A DNA stretch of 63,000 bases, filler included, from Gonapodya sp. JEL0774 (lineage: Eukaryota), in assembly GCA_027604505.1 (NCBI GenBank). It is 11 parts of 11 records of this genome, joined end to end, with 100 filler letters (N's around TTAATTAATTAA, not from the genome) between each part and the next. Parts side by side here need not be neighbours in the genome. Positions count along the whole stretch, not along the records: positions 28,782 to 34,418 come from JADIIX010000688.1; 10 more parts are not named here. One strand, 5' to 3'. Under the pieces are notes generated by a model, which was not told where the DNA came from, did no database searches, and saw nothing but the letters and a program-made list of their open reading frames with translations. Below, in pieces: positions 28,682 to 61,409 of this stretch; position 1 is the first letter of the stretch; the number at the start of each line of letters is the position of its first letter. Made by a program: the position numbers and the translations under genes.

Positions 28682-29346
28682 NNNNNNNNNNNNNNNNNNN
28701 NNNNNNNNNNNNNNNNNNNNNNNNNTTAATTAATTAANNNNNNNNNNNNNNNNNNNNNNNNNNNNNNNNNNNNNNNNNNNNGTCCTTGGACGTCGGGTGC
28801 CGTGACGAGGCCGTTGGCTCGTTCTGATGGAGTGACAAAGTCGTTGATGGGTTTTGGTTGGGATACCGGCGGACTAAGCGTAGCTATATCTGAAATGCAT
28901 ATACGAAAATTTCTCGGAATGTTCGAGTCCGTCTGAGACTGAATAATGGGGTTTGAAGGGAAACGAGATTTTCTCTTTCCTCCCCGACACAGCTGGATGT
29001 GTGTCAACATCATTCGTATCCCAACACTCTGCTTGAGGGAGTCCACATCAGATTATGACCATGCGAACTCAAAAAGACGCGCTCTTTCATTTCCTTTAAG
29101 AAGAATCTGTTCCAGCTGGTTCCAATTGTGTTCCCTACTGAACGGCAACCCATCACTACTGTGTATCACTGTCAGACACAAACACTCCGCCAAATCGCAA
29201 ACTAGATAACAGATTCTAACAGATTATATTAATATGTTATGTGGATATGCGGCTCAAATGAAGCTCGACTTCGGTGGGTGAGTCATTGTGGCAGAGCAGC
29301 TCTCAACCACACTCCCGCTTTCCCCTTCCCCACACAACGAATACCA

Positions 29347-32300
29347 ATGAGTTTTCTTCCCCTAGCAAATCCAGCGCTTAAGCCGCCACTTATCTTGCCC
29401 TCGCTTGTCCCGCTCGCCACCGCCGCTCGCGCCTCTGCCGTATTTCATTCAACCGGCAGCGGACTTCACGTGCGACGTTCAGGGCGACGAATCACGACGG
29501 CGGCGGCGGCGAGACCGGCCGCTTGTCTTCTGCAAAAGCCGGTGACGGTGGATGCTGCTGTGACCAGCGGCTTCAAGACCTTTACTCGGCCGGGGCTGGC
29601 ATCCACTGTTGAATCGTCCTCGTCCACCCAATCAACTGCTCCGCCGAAAACGCCCGACCTGGTCGCCATTAAAATCAACGGCAAAGATTTCAAAGTACCC
29701 AAAGATTTGAATATCGCAGATGCGTGCCAAATGAGTGGGGTGTATGTGCCGTGAGTCATCCTGAGAATCCTGAGCAGGGCCGTTTATGCATGTGTGGGCG
29801 CATAGCAAGCTGTAGCGACTCTCCAACGCGATTGGCATCTTCACCAATCAAGGAAGATGCATTTTATGATGTTGATGTGGCCATCAAAATCCTCTGGCAT
29901 TGCAGGTTGCATGTGCTGCAAACCACGAGAGACCTTAACTTTCGCAGAAAGTACCAGTCTTCTGTCCCCGACAGTATGGAGGATTGTAATGCTGGTGCAC
30001 CAATTGAACTGGATTTAGTTCTCTTTATGAGCTCTGCCTTCCGTTTGTCTGTTCTCGAGCTCACCACTCCGCATCTTCCCTCCCACCACCCCAGAACCCT
30101 CTGCTACCACCCCCGCCTTCCTCCCCGTGGCTCCTGCCGCCTCTGCCTCGTCCAAGTCGTCGGCTCGTGGAAACTTCTTCCCGCATGCGTCACGACCGTG
30201 GCCGAGGGGATGGAAATCAACACCGACACCGTCGAGGCCAAGGAAAACGTCAAGGGCGTGCTCACCATGTTGAGAGCTGAGCATCCTAACGAGTGTTTGA
30301 ATTGTGAGAGCAATGGGAGGTGTGAGGTGAGTCGGGAGGGGAAAGGGTGCCTGTTTGAGGATCATCAGCGGGACGAATTGATCAAACGGGGAGCGAGAGT
30401 CCGCGGGGTTTTCCACTCTTTCCAGCATGAGAACAACAATCTGAGAAATGGTTTGATGGAGGCCTATAGGAGCAATGGTACCCAGAGTGCCTGGTCCTTG
30501 TAGACTTCATCGCGGAATCACCCGCTTCACCAAACATCCCGGCTCACGTTTACGCACTCTGACCACCCCACAGTTCCAAGACCTCATTTACCGCTACGAC
30601 ATACCCGACGCACACCCCCGTGGCACCAAAATGGCCGGACACGTACACGACAGGGGACACAATCCTTACGGACATACGGTGATCGGGGTGAGTTCCTCTG
30701 CTCCGCCTTTGCCGATTCAAATTGTCGAGTCGGTGGACGTGTTAGTCTCCTTGCGGACTTTATACTCACGTTTTTGCTGCTCTCGTTGGCAGCTCCACCC
30801 CCCGGAATACTACGAGCAGCATTTTTTCGACGAGGACCGACCCGACGTCGTCCACGAGTTGGCCAAACCTGTACAAGACCACCACGCGCGAACCGTGCCC
30901 AACGAGCCCACTAGACCGCAGGCGGATAAATACGATGGGAGGTACTTTGAATTGTGAGTACCAGGGTGGAGTCGCATTCGGGTAGGAGAGTTATTAATAG
31001 TTCTTGTCTCCGATCATACTGATTCGATCACCCCACCGCGACACACCAGTGGGTACGCCAATCCTCACAAGGAAGAGGTCGATGTGAGCAGCGATGCGGT
31101 CGCGCGGAGTATGGACAAGTGTGTCAAGTGTGGTCGGTGTGTGACGGCGTGTTCGCACCTGCAGGTGGGTAGGAAAGTGTTGGTATGCACGAATGAGGGA
31201 TCTCGTGGTATCAACCGAGCGTGCTCTGCTCCTACTCCAACCTGATTCACCCGTCGCACACGTATCACCGATCAGGACATGAACATCCTCGGCTTCACAT
31301 CCCGCGGCGACCACGCTCACGTCGACACCCCCTTCTCTGCCCCTCTCTCCATGACCCTCTGCATCGAATGCGGCCAGTGCAGCGCCTACTGCCCCGTCGG
31401 CGCCATCACCGCCCGCTCCGAAGTCGACGCGGTGCTGCGCGAGCTCGAATCGAAGCGGAAAGTCATGGTCGCGTGCACGGCGCCGGCCACTCGGGTGGCT
31501 ATCGGAGAAGAGGTTTACATGGGTGAAGGGGAGAACGAGGAAGGGCGGATGGTGGCGGGGTTGAGGCATATCGGGTTCGACTACGTATTCGACACGAACT
31601 TTTCGGCGGATTTGACCATCATGGAGGAAGGGAGTGAGCTGATATGTGGGTGGCTGGTTCAGTCTGACTGGTGTTTTTTCTTGTCCTTCCTCTGAGGACT
31701 CGGACCCATGAATAACCCTATTTTCGCTTCCCGTAGCCCGCCTCAACAACGGCGGCACGTTCCCCATGCTCACTTCGTGCTGTCCCGGCTGGGTCAATCT
31801 GGTGGAAAAGTCGCACCCGGAACTGATCCCCAACCTGTCTTCGGCGCGGTCCCCACAGGCCATGTTGAGCAGTATGGTGAAACACTACTTCGCGAAGAAG
31901 TTGGGAAAAGATCCAGCAGATGTGTGCGTCGTGAGCGTCATGCCGTGTACAGGTGAGTTTTGTAATGGTGTACAAGAGGGTGCGTGAAGTATAGTTGAAA
32001 GTGATCTGTCGTTGTCCGTAACGTGTAATTCCTGTGGACTTACTGTGGATGGATCAGCGAAGAAGCACGAGGCTGGGAGGGAAGAGTTTTCTTTCACGGA
32101 CGCACGAGGGCGGAAAGTGAGGGAAACAGATCACGTGATCACGTGAGTTCTTTCCTTTGCCAAATCTTCGTGGTTGATTCGTTCTCACTCGCGAAATGGC
32201 CGACACACATCAGAACCCGCGAACTCGGCCACATCTTTCGTCTCCTTCGCGTGCCACTTGCACAACTCAAACCCTCGGACTATGATCCTACCTTGGGTGT

Positions 32301-33033
32301 TGCGACCGGCGCGGGTGTCATCTTTGGTGTCACTGGCGGCGTTATGGAAGCCGCGGTCCGTACTGCGCAGATCTTGACCGGCGTAGAGAAACCCATTCCG
32401 CTCGGCGCGTTGCATGATGTGAGGGGTCTGCAAGGTGTCAAGTCTGCGACGGTAGCGGTGAAGAACGCCGCTGGACAAGAAGTTCCCGTCCGGGTTGCTG
32501 TCGCCCATGGGGGCAAGAACGTCAAGGAGCTGCTGAAGAAAATGCAAGCCAAGGAAGTGGAATTCGATTTTGTGGAGATTATGATGTGTCCTGGAGGGTG
32601 CATCGGTGGAGGTGGGCAGCCAAAGAGTAAGAGCAAAGATATCTTGCAGAAGAGGATGGCCGCGGTGTACGACGAGGATGAGAGGAAAGTGCTGAGGAGG
32701 AGTCATGAGAATCCAATGGTAAGTTCTCCAGAATTGACCAGGATATAGCACGACCTCGTGTGCGGTCGCTGAATGTGACTCCCCTCAAATCCTCGTGCTT
32801 CTTCAGATCAAGGAGCTCTACGAAAACTTCCTCGGTGCGCCACTTTCCGAAACCGCTCACCACTACCTGCACACCCACTACCATGACCGATCCCACCCAC
32901 ACGACGAAACACCCGAGACGAGGGGGGACGGTAAGCTGTGCCGTCGATTAAACAGCAATCAACTGTAGCGACATGACTCAAATGTTGTGCACGTCAGGTC
33001 ACATACACAAACACCACCCAGAGGAACGCGTGA
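29347..33033 (+). CDS. hydA: [FeFe]-hydrogenase, group A, with 2Fe-2S, His-ligated 4Fe-4S, 2x4Fe-4S, H-cluster and small-subunit domains; about 11 exons; N-terminal targeting presequence
   Basis: PTLCYHP...GSCRLCLV...PAC; HPNECLNCESNGRCEFQDL; CVKCGRCVTAC; CIECGQCSAYCP; ADLTIMEEGSE; L1 TSCCPGW; L2 MPCTAKKHE; L3 EIMMCPGGCIGGGGQP; RRSHENP...HHYLHTHY. Confidence 0.96.
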
Positions 33034-33241
33034 AGAGACTGGAGAAGGCCTTGTGATGGAAGGAGTGAGTGTTGATACAAAGCTGGACTTCTGTGAATCT
33101 TTTTTGGGTTATTAAATGTTTGCGCGATAATGAGTGTAATTCGTACGGTACAAGTGTTGCAACCATCTTATGTAACTGCCTATAAAACACTTATCTTTAC
33201 TGCATCCCGCTGCGCTCGATCTACCACGTCGACGCAAAATC

Positions 33242-34330
33242 TCATTTTTTCGCGAGACAATCCCTCACCACCTTGGTTACCTCCAACACCTTCTCCTCTT
33301 CCAATCTCCTCGCTACAATTTGTACGCTCAGTGGGGCGTTGGCAAAACGTTCAGGAGTGTAGATAGCGTGGATTTTGCGCTCAAATTCATTCGCAAAGGT
33401 GTAGTCTGCTGGCAAGGGTATGTCAGTAGATTGTACTAGAGAGACGGGAACAGTGGTCGCCGTGTAATCTGGGGAGGAATTCGACGTGAACGAAAATTCA
33501 TTGCGCATAGGTGGGATAACTTACCGAGTAAGCTGTACAACATCGTGTAGGTCAGCGTCGCCATGAGGTCTCGGCCAGTGTCGTGAGGTACCGCAGGAAC
33601 TGCCATGACGGGGCAAATGATGGCATCGATGCCGAGCGAGGTAAAGTATTCGAGGTAACGGGCTTTGAAGTTGTCCCGCTCGACTATTGTAGGCAGTAAA
33701 TTAGTACTCTAAAACGTGGGAGGTTGTGGTGGGTTCATGCAAAACTTACGAATCAACTCCCACATCTGCGACACAGTCAGGTGCCCCTTCTCCCACTTTG
33801 CAACCTCTGCGACAGCACTGTCCGGGTACGGTTCCTGGAACACAGGCTCGTGTGAACCGAAGCGGAGGAAAGGGTTGGAAATGTACTCGTCCGCAGGTTC
33901 CCCGCTTGTGGAGAGAATATCCCGCAAGGCGATTTGGCCGTCGGCGGTCCACAACGCGTAGACGAGACCAAGGAGTCTGTCGATGTCGAAGCACTTGAAC
34001 TCGACGACTGATTGTGCGATGTGGTGAGTTGGAAAGTCATGAAAATGGAGTCCCGTGTGACGTTACCTACCTTCATGGCCTGCGGCTTTAACAGCTGCCA
34101 CAGTTTCCAAGACAGCCCGCTCAACGGGTGGCACAGGCTGTTGGAAGACAAGGGATGATGTATGGTGAGTGAACGAGACTGGAAAAGGATCACGAGTGAC
34201 ATGCGGTGGACTAACCCGTGCCAATCCGTTCGATGTGTAGTAGCCGAACTTCAACTTCTTTGGCAATTGAATTTGGCGGAACGGGATCGGGATGACATCG
34301 GCTGTGTAATGAGAATATGATCACTGATTA
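33242..34330 (-). CDS. Amidase-signature family (acetamidase/FAAH-like), C-terminal exons, 5' truncated
   Basis: KKLKFGYY, PPVERAVLETVAAVKAAGHE, DAIICPV..PAVPH, YTMLYSLL and PLSVQIVARRLEEEKVL. Confidence 0.85.
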
Positions 34331-34689
34331 TTTGTATCCGCATTATGATGGAACCACTGATCCGACGCTCACGATCGAAAGCTGATTGATTCGAGTCAAC
34401 CATGATCTAGAACATAAANNNNNNNNNNNNNNNNNNNNNNNNNNNNNNNNNNNNNNNNNNNNTTAATTAATTAANNNNNNNNNNNNNNNNNNNNNNNNNN
34501 NNNNNNNNNNNNNNNNNNCTCTCTTCCCGGTCACGAGCATTTCGGACGGTTTGGATGGGCTTAGGAAAGAAAGGAGTACCTACAACTTCTACGTGATGAT
34601 GAATCATGTCACTAAAACGTTTTATTTGTTTGGCAAGGTGTGTTTTGTTGAGCGTCATTTTGCAATTTGCAATTGACTTTTTTATGGCT

Positions 34690-37587: not shown

Positions 37588-40138
37588 TCACAACTCCACC
37601 CACACCTCAACATCGCTCAAACGTGGCAGGCTTTTCAGTCCGGTCCTCCGAATAGGGCTTCTCTGCAAACCTGTGGTTGTCGGAGCAAATGTTCCCTTGA
37701 AAACCAGAGCCACGGCCCGATCGAATTTGTTGCGCTGATCGCCATGCTCCACTTCTTGATCTGCCAGCACACGCTCTGCCTCGCCTTCCGCCCTCTCTCG
37801 CAAGTGCTTCCAAGCGACGTTTCGTATTCCCTCAATGAGAGCGCTGAGCACCCCTTCCGTGTCTCCATTGTCACTCCTAGCATTTGGAGACTGAGCAAGC
37901 TGGATGACTTGGTCTTCTACATCAAGCTCATCAAGGTTGTCAAAACAAACAACCTGACAGCCATTGACAGGATTGGGGAGGTGAGACAGGACAACGCCTG
38001 GATATGCAGTTCGGAGAAGGCCATCGGCGCTGAAATGGAAGCGAAGTGAACAGAGGAGACTGGAACCATGCGGAGGAGATACTGACTCAACAACCCATAC
38101 GCGTCGTCCTGGCCGAAATCTTTCAACCTGATCCTGAAGCCACTTTTCTTTCGCAGCCTTCCGATCTTCCTCACGACGCTTGAAGAGGGCAGTTTCTCAT
38201 TGTGTCAGAAGTGGTTTTGTTCTTTAATTCAGACAGCGATTGTTGAAACTCACAGGATCGTGGGCCGGGCACCACACCTTACCCGTCAGAACTTTCTCCT
38301 TCCAGATCCGTCCGTTCGTTCTATCCTCAAACGTGCTCCACTCCGCGATCTCCTTCATAGCGAGGCCTGCCAGGAGCGCGCAAGTGGGATGATAGGTACG
38401 GGTGCACTTCCCCTTGACACACTGAACGGGGGCCCCATTTGGAGGGTAAACAAACTTTTTGGATGTCGACGTGATGACAGGTGGGGGGTTTTTCTTGCAG
38501 ATGTCACATTTCTGAGAAGTATCAGAGCATGAGAATCATTTTAGCCACGAAAGCTGAACGGCCTATGCTCACAAGTTTCCACCTGTCCTTTGACACTAGT
38601 TCTACTCCCGATACAGCCTCCACCAGTTCCGTCACCTGCCTCTCCATTTTCGTGGTTCGGGGCGGTACGTTTACCGACCGCATTTGAGATGATCTCTCAG
38701 CGGCCGGCCACTCCACGCCGATTGTCGCTGCCTCAAGATGTGATGCCGCTTCAGTGAGGAGGAAAATGGGGTTCCGTAAAATGTCGGACGACACTGTTTG
38801 AGGCGTATTAAGAGGTGGGTGCATCGGGTTACTTGAAGATTGTAGGGTCCCTAACTGAAGTTCATGATTGGCTTGTGAGGATTGCTCCGCACTGAGAAGA
38901 GCACGTCTGGAAAGTGCAGTCAGCTCCTGATCCTCATCGATCTTGGAGGAAGGTGGCTGTTGAAGATCTTCGGGAGAGAATGCATCAACGCCACAAAATC
39001 CAAATTGCCTCTTCGCACGGTGATCTGTCTCATCAAGTTGGATGGACGATGTAGACCCGAGATCGACCTCCCAATTCTGCGCACATGTGTCAGTGCTGTC
39101 AACTATAGGTTCCCCAAGATGCAATTCTCGTAGTTTTACTTCGATTTCCTCAGTAACGGTTTTGATCATTTTGACCTTTGCAACTGCTGTTTCGGGAACA
39201 TGGATTGTGCAGAGGCGGTGAGCGAAGCCCGAGCCATCGGCGAGAGGCAACAGGAGGAGAGATTCGGGTGGAGCAGATGGTGAACTTAAATCGGCCGGAT
39301 GAGGGCATAAAATACACTACAAAATGGCAAAAGAGGATTGAAGATAACGTTGCAAAAATTACACAAAACCGCCATCTTTGGGAATAAACTTTTCAACTCA
39401 CTCTTCGCTCGTCGCCCTTCCATTTTGTTGCGTGCTCCCGTTTCACCTTCCTGGCTGGCGCCATTCCTCTTGTCATTTGAGGTTCCACTGTCCAATTTGT
39501 CTCGTCCAGTGTCCCGTTAACCAATCCCCACACGTCGATCGTCACACTATCAGATAAACACTTGCAGGCTCGAGATTCGAGGCCAATGGAGGCCCAGAAA
39601 GGAGGAGCAAAATTGACGGACTCGGCGAGGTTGAGACCGAGATTGAATCCAGAGTGATAAGCGTGGGGAACTGGTAAAAAGACAATGCTTATGTTCATAA
39701 TGATACTGAAATATTCACAGACCAAAAAAACACACGCACAAGTGATAACGATTTCCCCAGCAGCTTGTGCCAGCGATAAGCACTTGACGCCTGCCCGCGC
39801 CAACACATCAGGATGGAAGACCTTGTCTTTGTGTCGAAGAGACTCTTTACAATGCCGAAAATCCTCGGGGAATACGGAATGTGCGAGTTGCTCGAACTTT
39901 GCGCGGTGAACCGGAGGAATGGTGTACCACTGACGTTCGATTTTGCAGATGCACAAAAAATTACTAGCGCGTATGTCCAAATTACCACGCGACGGCTCAC
40001 CTGCTTTCCCTCCCCAAGATGTACAAAATTAATGGAACATAGATCCACATCTTCCAAGTGCCACGCGAATGTCGCTCTCCACGAACCAGCATACAGGTAA
40101 GGGGCGTTCACGCCAGGCATTCTTCTTTTCACTCGCAG
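37588..40138 (-). CDS. JmjC histone demethylase, KDM4/Rph1-like, 5' truncated
   Basis: [53 protein letters not shown] and CKC; Fe ligands HxE...H intact; AHRLC PHD-like segment downstream. The join to the distal exons is inferred. Confidence 0.88.
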
Positions 40139-51673: not shown

Positions 51674-52635
51674 CTTAATGTGCATGAAACTTACCGCTGT
51701 ACCCGAACACAGCCAGCACGAATGCCATCTCACCACTTTCAATATCCGAACATCTGGTGTCAGGGTTTGAGGTCATCCATTTGGCAATCGGAACACTCAC
51801 GCGATTGATTGAAAGTGCCCCAATCGGAAGGGATATTGGCCGGTGCCTTCGTAGTTCTCAAAAGTCTTGTCCACCCTCTTTTTACGGTACAAAGCGAGCT
51901 CCTCGAGTCCGATAACCTTCTCGCCCTTTTCGTTGACGCGAGCCGAAGCCAAAAGTTCCTCCACGAGCTTAGGATCTGGCTTCGTCTGGTCAGCTCCAGT
52001 AATTGCGTCTTCACGAGTCAGGCTGGCTGGGTGCTCTACAAACGATGAGGGCACAAAGTCGTGAAGGTTCCACGGGTACTGCGACGAAACAGGAGAACAG
52101 TGACATGATTGCACACGATCAAGAGTGGCGAGGGATGAATGGATCACACTGGCCCACTCACAGTCTTTATTTTCGTCCGAACTTGGAAGAGAAGAGGGCC
52201 AGAGATGCTGAGAAGCGTAAGTCAACCCATGCTCGACTTTACATATGCACGCATATATATCAACACCAGAAAGCCACATCCGAACTCACTCAATTCCAAC
52301 GCCGAAACAGTTCCAGAAACCCCACGCAATATCCCACCAGGTGATGTTCTTGCCGTCACGCGGAATATAGCCGTGGTTTGCCATTATGTTCTGGCGAACG
52401 GTTCGTGTCGGTGGTTTGCGACATTCATGAAGGAAGGGTGAAACCGTGGTCAAACATCACCATCACGACCGAACTGATCGCAGTAGACGTCAGTACATGA
52501 GCGATCATCACTCACCAGGGCAGGACATGGCGCGCGATGGTCGGTTGGCCCAGCAGCCTGGAATTCATGCGCCCCAGAATTGAAACGACCCTTCCCAGGG
52601 ACACGGGCAATCGTTGGGGCAGTCTCTGACGACAT
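51674..52635 (-). CDS. Heme-thiolate peroxidase (chloroperoxidase / unspecific peroxygenase), 3' truncated
   Basis: DHRAPCPAL|NIMANHGYIPRDGKNIT with the PCP heme ligand; VEHPASLTRED; SGE at the acid-base Glu position. Confidence 0.9.
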
Positions 52636-60376: not shown

Positions 60377-61052
60377 TCTACCCACCCGTCTGCCCAACCC
60401 GGGGACTTTCGGACCACGGGGCTCGGAATCGTAGGTCGTGGAGTAGGCAGACTTGCATGTGTACCGAGCTGATGCGCAAATATATGACTTGAAAAACCCA
60501 CCCTTGAGAGATCGTGAATCAAGTTGCGTTCGGTCTGGTTCTATCGGTGTGGATCAAAAGGTGCGAGGCCGTGGTGGCTTTTCCTGGACCGACAAAGTAC
60601 GTGCTCTTGTACTGCACACGTGACTGGCAATGTTGGACAGTATCTACCACGTGCTGCTCGGTTACGCATCCGGACAGCTGGGTTGTGCTCTCGGGGTAGT
60701 CTGATAGCGTCGACCGACTACAGTCTGCAATGTTCCTTTCGGGTTTTCTTCTGAGCTCCATCGCGTTTGCCGATGGTTTGCCATTTGTGTATTATCGTGA
60801 AACTGTGTGGCTCCTCTGTACTTTCATGGTACACGGTCCGAGTCTAAACCACATGGCCATGTCGCGAAAAACCGTGATGCATGTGTGTGGATCTTGATCT
60901 CGGGGGGAAGGTAGTGCGGTTAACCAGCCCCAGTACAAGACACCTGCTGGACACTTTATACTACTCATGTCCGCAGGATTGGGTGAGGATGATCCACTCG
61001 AACCATTCGTTCTAAAACCATCAAAAATCCAATTACACTATTCAGACAAACC

Positions 61053-61409
61053 ATGGAAACAGCTTACGCCCTCTACGTCTCAGTCGGAAACGCCGCGCTC
61101 TGGCTCAATTCTCCCGCCCTAGTGAGCGCCATCGGCTTCTCAAGCGTGGGACCTGTCGCAGGTCGGTGTGTTTTGCAGACCTTTTGCACCACCACACCGT
61201 TCATCCTCGCTGATCCCACCTGTTCCCGATCAGGATCTGTCGCTGCGACTGTCCAATCGACCATGGGGGGTACGGTGGCGGCTGGGAGTATGTTCGCCGG
61301 ACTGCAGAGTCTGGCCATGGGAGGGGCGGCGGCCGGAGCTGGGGCGATACTGGGAACGGTTGCTGTGGGTGCTGTGGGAGTAGCGGCGGTGTGCGCGCTT
61401 AGGGGTTAG
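61053..61409 (+). CDS. IFI6/IFI27 (ISG12)-like small Gly/Ala-rich membrane protein, 2 exons
   Basis: IGFSSVGPVA|GSVAATVQSTMGGTVAAGSMFAGLQSLAMGG; intron ~61162-61233. Confidence 0.75.
   Translation: METAYALYVSVGNAALWLNSPALVSAIGFSSVGPVAGRCVLQTFCTTTPFILADPTCSRSGSVAATVQSTMGGTVAAGSMFAGLQSLAMGGAAAGAGAILGTVAVGAVGVAAVCALRG

Follow-up and report, generated by a model that had tools for sequence, protein, structure and literature searches.

The question raised by the locus described here is whether a free-living fungus carries an intact [FeFe]-hydrogenase gene and what the enzyme might do in its cells. The locus lies in a window of 63,000 nucleotides (the whole stretch of DNA that was analyzed, spacers included) from Gonapodya sp. 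JEL0774, assembly GCA_027604505.1. The window consists of 11 unlinked contigs, each about 5.6 kb long, with spacers between them; the contig with the hydrogenase gene covers positions 28782-34418 (5637 bp). The initial annotation had proposed that this contig encodes an intact, spliced hydrogenase (HydA) in a fungus from outside the rumen. Gonapodya is a monoblepharid, i.e. a member of a group that is free-living in freshwater according to the accessible text of PMC6899921. As judged from its sequence, the gene is intact and encodes a fungal [FeFe]-hydrogenase of group A, of the CpI type and of the catalytic kind.

Gene structure and public gene models

The gene extends from 29347 to 33056 on the plus strand and comprises 11 exons and 10 introns. 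Translation of the spliced exons, from the ATG at 29347 to the TGA at 33054-33056, yields a product of 794 amino acids (aa) in a single open frame with no internal stop. The first estimate of about ten introns was exact; all of them have GT-AG borders and are 67-344 nt long, with the donor sites GTGAGT (six introns), GTGGGT (two) and GTAAG (two). The GC content of third codon positions (GC3) in the coding exons is 0.69, versus a GC content of 0.51 in the introns. The gene end at 33033, as first proposed, had to be corrected to 33056, because the TGA at 33031-33033 sits in a different frame and the phase of intron 10 leads to the TGA at 33054-33056. Exon 11 resembles the C-terminus of a related protein, P0005 (6 of 11 residues identical, E 3e-4).

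Exon 9 is a 100% match to a partial NCBI model from the same strain, HDU93_008631 (KAJ3333273.1; P0003). This model has introns 2-9 in common with ours, but it lacks exon 1, has its start within intron 1 and continues through intron 10 unspliced, so that neither the N-terminal extension nor the actual C-terminus is visible in it. The orthologue from G. prolifera, KXS15429.1 (P0004), is located on a 392-kb scaffold and is 95% identical over exon 9 and 89% identical overall (421 of 472 aligned residues). It lacks about 310 N-terminal residues and its tail is unspliced. Both public Gonapodya models are thus incomplete, with 701 aa (JEL0774) and 476 aa (G. prolifera) of about 794.

Class of the enzyme

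The three H-cluster motifs are all complete in the window protein (at residues 478, 534 and 689), and four complete sets of accessory Fe-S ligands stand ahead of the H-domain, as had been read from the DNA at the outset. These are a 2Fe-2S, a His-ligated 4Fe-4S and two ferredoxin-type 4Fe-4S sets, which is the CpI-type M3 architecture. A Pfam scan of single exons gave the order Fer2_4, NADH-G_4Fe-4S_3, Fer4, Fe_hyd_lg_C and Fe_hyd_SSU, as in CpI, and the N-terminal Fe-S region is homologous to NuoG. In the alignment with CpI the H-cluster cysteines and the proton-transfer cysteine (C480, C481, C536, C691 and C695) fall on C299, C300, C355, C499 and C503. Furthermore, E460, E463, R467, S500 and K539 align to the identical CpI residues E279, E282, R286, S319 and K358; in CpI, E279, E282, R286 and S319 form the proton path (numbering from the alignment). 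Of 98 columns that are nearly invariant in a HydA alignment of 89 rows, the spliced protein keeps 97.

Profile searches and structure prediction were made with P0003. It scored 486.9 with TIGR02512 (cut-off 405.95). Its best NCBIfam model is that of the NADH-dependent group A6 (NF040763), albeit with 685 bits against a cut-off of 765; P0003 lacks the first strands, and with this bacterial model the Neocallimastix and Piromyces enzymes, at 741 and 753, likewise stay under 765. The NCBIfam ferredoxin hydrogenase model scored P0003 at 483. An AlphaFold2 model of P0003, built from 72 sequences, has a pLDDT value of 79.6 (predicted local distance difference test) and matches T. kivui HydA of HydABC as well as CpI with a target template modelling (TM) score of about 0.9.

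The paralogues Nar1/NARF/IOP1 are not known to have the 2Fe-2S module, the His-ligated module or the P1 motif with its double Cys. Since the window protein has all of these and passes TIGR02512, it is by these features not Nar1; the trees described below contained no Nar1 sequence. Together, the domain order, TIGR02512, the CpI alignment and the AlphaFold match agree with the original assignment to a clostridial-type catalytic HydA.

Phylogenetic relationship and host of the gene

The phylogenetic relationship of the hydrogenase was analyzed in two trees. The larger one has 89 rows, made up of the window protein, 74 of 120 homologues and 14 out of 77 frames taken from retrieved loci; it excludes NCBI's model of the window gene, synthetic constructs and many near-duplicates. 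In this tree the window protein, G. prolifera and P0005 are sister to the Neocallimastigomycota, with a Shimodaira-Hasegawa-like approximate likelihood ratio test (SH-aLRT) value of 93. In a 33-row tree with bootstraps, these three form one clade with the Neocallimastigomycota Neocallimastix and Piromyces (99/95), and P0005 is sister to both Gonapodya sequences (99/98), which makes it a third member of a non-gut fungal branch. Along with Leptophrys and green algae, the fungal clade falls into a clade of eukaryotes (100/99) that adjoins Thermotogota, and the next clade outside the fungal one is HydA of the rhizarian Leptophrys. The sample was chosen by similarity to the query and many eukaryotes, e.g. 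Acanthamoeba, are missing from it; the trees speak to the fungal grouping and not to the donor. The fact that the window protein shares one clade with the hydrogenosomal HydA of gut fungi means that the gene likely predates the gut fungi. The fungal hydrogenase is common to free-living monoblepharids and gut fungi, and its origin likely lies before rumen life. As a separate observation, a 637-aa hydrogenase (P0006) branches just outside Neocallimastix plus Piromyces in the 33-row tree and likely represents a deep gut-fungal lineage.

Among the best 120 matches of a search with exon 9, the next match after the Gonapodya sequences is P0005, a 396-aa H-domain protein with 68% identity, followed by gut-fungal, rhizarian, Thermotogota and algal enzymes at no more than 59%. 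Over the full length, the gut-fungal enzymes are 54-55% identical to the window protein; in the Fe-S N-terminal region the identity is 61%, versus 39-55% for the nine other rows having this region. A metagenome scan with P0005 gave no match above 58% identity among the best 80 of 545, and a prokaryote scan returned 6 loci with 26-40% identity.

Could the contig come from a contaminating protist, or the gene be a non-catalytic Nar1/NARF paralogue after all? The contig is short, the assembly is fragmented and the nearest outside clade is rhizarian. However, the 89%-identical orthologue sits on a long scaffold of a separately sequenced second species, and the GC content of the contig (0.531) and its tetranucleotide profile are inside the range of the other 10 contigs. 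Contamination is for these two reasons very unlikely, and the Fe-S modules, the P1 motif and the TIGR02512 score speak against Nar1. We consider this combined explanation extremely improbable and largely refuted.

N-terminal extension and linker insertion

The first Fe-S domain begins only after about 105 residues, compared with about 30 in gut fungi. The initial annotation had described an acid-poor extension of about 85 aa; its composition was correct (residues 1-85 contain 7 Arg, 3 Lys, 1 Asp and no Glu), while its length was underestimated. The extension is net basic and rich in Ser, Thr and Ala, and its strongest amphipathic window spans residues 41-53. Its sequence is compatible with a mitochondrial presequence, albeit no proof of one.

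An explanation that bears on exon 1 is that it encodes no presequence and the enzyme is cytosolic, or that the enzyme oxidizes H2 from neighboring fermenters. The first 27 residues are indeed atypical, and such enzymes are reversible according to the accessible text of PMC13632651. Set against this are the basic, Ser/Thr/Ala-rich extension with its amphipathic Arg patch and the orthologue of the gut fungus Caecomyces, which is hydrogenosomal and H2-evolving (PMC13556243, accessible text). A cytosolic or uptake enzyme is, in our view, very unlikely.

A second peculiarity, which the initial annotation had not mentioned, is an insertion in the linker that joins the His-ligated cluster to the 4Fe-4S motif after it. 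This linker measures 116 aa, versus 37-56 aa in 69 of the 88 other rows (those carrying both motifs) and 51-53 aa in the gut-fungal enzymes. The 63 residues in excess of Neocallimastix are rich in His, Asp, Glu and Pro and predicted to be disordered. This insertion had no Pfam match, and the ESM Atlas gave only matches below 0.9, which reflect the flanking Fe-S domains. To see in it a loop that binds metal or has a shielding role would be guesswork.

Search for a maturase

An active H-cluster would require a maturation route, and this is the weak step of the best explanation given below. We looked for HydG by a route that led from a bacterial HydG profile on 50% representatives to eukaryotic HydG and from there to the gut-fungal cluster. 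The database holds both Gonapodya proteomes; proteins of about 295-990 aa were searched and the best 120 inspected per search. The route recovered the gut-fungal HydG, and fragments of 418-434 aa with 61-63% identity still reached the best 120 of the search with Neocallimastix HydG. No Gonapodya protein was among the best 120 with either the Anaeramoeba/Aduncisulcus profile (floor 671 bits) or Neocallimastix HydG (floor 591 bits). A 67-row tree contained no further HydG sister to the gut-fungal clade, and none of 10 looked-up cluster proteins was a Gonapodya HydG. No maturase family was found in 289 of the 312 window frames of at least 75 aa, the window being a tiny part of the genome. A partial Gonapodya HydG model could be missed, because both HydA models are truncated, short proteins fall outside the search and one of the assemblies is fragmented. 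The initial annotation had named missing maturases as a reason to doubt the hydrogenase; the outcome is unfavorable and not decisive. The presence of HydG in Gonapodya has near even odds, and a HydG gap is possible.

The supplements of PMC11216029, PMC4967309 and PMC6712302 have no Gonapodya or maturase entry; they are uninformative, and the first one also lacks gut-fungal controls. In the HydG trees, eukaryotic HydG formed one clade beside chlamydial HydG, in agreement with the accessible text of PMC7449678, and the gut-fungal HydG had no close non-gut relative in the tree set.

The maturase results lead to the explanation of an orphan hydrogenase: the gene would have been kept while hydG, perhaps together with hydE and hydF, was lost. 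The product would then be a relic, an apo-enzyme that serves electron transfer in some other role, or an enzyme matured in a non-canonical way, as proposed for Giardia and Entamoeba. Apart from the missing HydG and the maturase-free frames, this explanation draws on active hydrogenases without maturases, which are reported in the accessible text of PMC11216029, and on a flaw in the G. prolifera model. About 9 residues of that model (at window aa 437-445) match the window DNA in a shifted frame; the patch is either an assembly or gene-model error, or decay, i.e. a real lesion. However, the HydG view was limited to the size range and best 120 given above, so that partial models could escape, and the homology searches did not extend to HydE and HydF. 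Unlike a relic, the copy in the window retains every catalytic residue and nearly all near-invariant columns. An orphan hydrogenase is therefore a possible but rather unlikely state. Separately, we considered whether the copy in G. prolifera evolves faster (23 versus 7 derived changes, p 0.005) and rejected this, as 7 of the 23 changes belong to the off-frame patch or to the tail that is unspliced.

Proposed function

We tentatively favor, at somewhat less than an even chance, a mitochondrial valve that passes electrons from NADH to H2 during anoxia and is fed via the 51- and 24-kDa subunits of complex I. The hydrogenase would be imported into the mitochondrial matrix, as suggested by the basic, acid-poor extension and the hydrogenosomal orthologue. 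Under anoxia, electrons from NADH would reach it through NuoF and NuoE, the 51- and 24-kDa subunits, and would be released as H2; the predicted path runs from NADH to the flavin mononucleotide (FMN) of NuoF, then to a 2Fe-2S cluster, two 4Fe-4S clusters and the H-cluster. This flow would occur only at very low H2, e.g. in anoxic sediment with H2 consumers. The candidate partners are suggested by the known complex that Hyd forms with NuoE and NuoF in Caecomyces, and anoxic induction by the oxygen sensitivity of the H-cluster together with the Acanthamoeba precedent. The valve is the best reading because the closest tested orthologue uses NuoEF and because the Fe-S region is nearest to that of the gut-fungal enzymes. 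According to the accessible text of PMC13556243 (2026), the Hyd of Caecomyces binds a NuoE and a NuoF that derive from mitochondrial complex I, and with them makes H2 from NADH without ferredoxin, which is feasible only at low H2.

Two further points, besides the HydG searches and the off-frame patch, count against the valve. Residues 1-27 are rich in Pro and Leu and contain no Arg, and the amphipathic basic patch begins only at about residue 41, so this is not a textbook presequence. In a respiring mitochondrion NuoE and NuoF are normally bound to the 75-kDa subunit, and hence free NuoE/NuoF may be scarce.

The enzyme could instead be an active mitochondrial H2 producer that receives its electrons from ferredoxin through pyruvate:ferredoxin oxidoreductase (PFO), as in Acanthamoeba and clostridial CpI, rather than from NuoEF. 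The domain set and fold match CpI, and ferredoxin co-purifies with the HydA of Acanthamoeba, an enzyme of a mitochondrion that respires fully (PMC13632651, accessible text). In contrast, the closest tested orthologue took NADH via NuoEF, with no ferredoxin route detected in the accessible text of PMC13556243, and NCBIfam favors the NADH-dependent A6 model over the ferredoxin hydrogenase model. Ferredoxin feeding is thus distinctly unlikely.

With regard to the mitochondrial NADH valve, the host probably respires. This is suggested by a JmjC gene (39396-40138, minus strand) and a Peroxidase_2 family gene (51800-52285, minus strand) in the window, and by cytochrome-related domains that are missing from gut fungi and occur in a chytrid set including G. 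prolifera (PMC6712302, accessible text). Both genes had been recognized beforehand, the second one as a peroxygenase; they are on other contigs and have no physical link to the hydrogenase. An NDUFA4-like gene, also claimed earlier, was not recovered among the same 289 of 312 frames or by a motif scan. A hint of low-oxygen adaptation, independent of the hydrogenase, is that Ura9 of G. prolifera carries the same active-site Cys as in gut fungi and in yeasts that are facultative anaerobes, as stated in the accessible text of PMC8520639.

A bolder extension of the valve, which we regard as unlikely, sees in Gonapodya a living intermediate between the respiring fungal mitochondrion and the hydrogenosome of rumen fungi. 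Anoxia would shift the NADH-oxidizing 51/24-kDa module from the 75-kDa subunit onto the hydrogenase, and H2 would be made, possibly without canonical HydG. If this is true, no fungus from outside animal guts would have been known to produce H2 before Gonapodya. Gonapodya has reportedly been grown in pure culture. It would allow a direct test, in a culturable free-living fungus, of the change from a respiring fungal mitochondrion to a hydrogenosome, and of whether the Caecomyces-type complex of Hyd and NuoEF arose from a switch on complex I that responds to anoxia. Should HydG truly be absent, Gonapodya would be a tractable case for the open problem of maturase-less hydrogenases.

Exons and neighboring genes

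Exon 1 (29347-29750; this and all following exons are on the plus strand) contains the ATG, the extension, a putative mitochondrial presequence by its composition, and the start of the 2Fe-2S domain; it is absent from the partial NCBI model. A TATA-like AT-rich stretch lies at 29224-29233, about 115 nt upstream of the ATG. An 88-nt intron is possible at 29278-29365, with a GTGAGT donor and a pyrimidine-rich acceptor. It would remove the start codon and was rejected, as no upstream ATG then yields the hydrogenase frame.

The 2Fe-2S ligands (C138, C149, C152 and C166) and those of the His-ligated 4Fe-4S cluster (H198, C202, C205 and C211) are in exon 2 (30095-30326). Exon 3 (30574-30687; GC3 0.66) completes the latter domain and begins the His-rich insertion, the main part of which is encoded by exon 4 (30793-30953; GC3 0.70); both exons are shared with P0003. 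The first ferredoxin-type 4Fe-4S motif (C328-C338) follows in exon 5 (31050-31164), and the second (C371-C381) in exon 6 (31276-31645), together with the start of the H-domain and E460 and E463 of the proton path. Exon 7 (31737-31952) contributes R467, motif P1 (C480, C481), S500 and the first half of motif P2 (M534, C536), and exon 8 (32058-32142) the remainder of P2 (K539). The H-domain continues in exon 9 (32214-32718) with motif P3 (M689, C691, C695). Exon 10 (32807-32930) encodes a C-terminal, small-subunit-like segment, and exon 11 (32998-33056) the His-rich tail and the stop, where P0003 instead reads through intron 10.

An intron-containing amidase-family gene (33245-34418, minus strand; weak Pfam Amidase matches) converges on the hydrogenase gene, with no sign of a functional link. 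Elsewhere in the window a PHD-type domain (38227-38535) adjoins the JmjC gene, and the Pfam family Ifi-6-16 (interferon-induced 6-16) was matched at 60993-61406 (plus strand) with 31 bits (cut-off 29.1), in a fungus.

Comparison with known systems

The presence of a hydrogenase gene in the genus is not new. The initial annotation had cautioned that homologues might already be recorded, and a figure legend of Murphy et al., 2019 (Fig. 5B; 10.1101/487215) mentions in passing that Fe-only hydrogenases of G. prolifera cluster with gut-fungal genes; the accessible text of that work contains no targeting, maturase or mechanism analysis of the enzyme. The accessible main text of the Caecomyces paper (PMC13556243) does not mention Gonapodya, and a literature search, with subscription journals largely outside it, found no work on monoblepharids that deals with targeting, maturases or H2 production. 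What the present analysis adds is the full gene model, the His-rich insertion of 63 aa and a possible gap in the maturases.

The direct orthologue is KXS15429.1 of G. prolifera, which takes the same place beside the gut fungi. The hydrogenosomal enzymes of Neocallimastigomycota (Neocallimastix frontalis K9LHV2, Piromyces sp. E2 19901, Caecomyces) have the same domain order and ligands as the window protein. By contrast, the window protein belongs to a monoblepharid that is free-living and has 53% GC, and it differs by a longer extension, a longer linker and a His-rich tail; HydG was found for the gut fungi and not for Gonapodya among the best 120 of the Neocallimastix HydG search. Clostridial CpI and the HydA subunit of bacterial HydABC (T. 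kivui 8a6t, A. woodii 7q4v) share the fold and all catalytic residues with the window protein, but lack the introns, putative presequence and insertion of the window gene, and bacterial HydB is not of the mitochondrial NuoF lineage (PMC13556243, accessible text). The functional model is the mitochondrial HydA of Acanthamoeba castellanii, a respiring mitochondrion with an anoxia-induced hydrogenase, for which the accessible text of PMC13632651 reports HydE, HydF, HydG, PFO and a ferredoxin partner.

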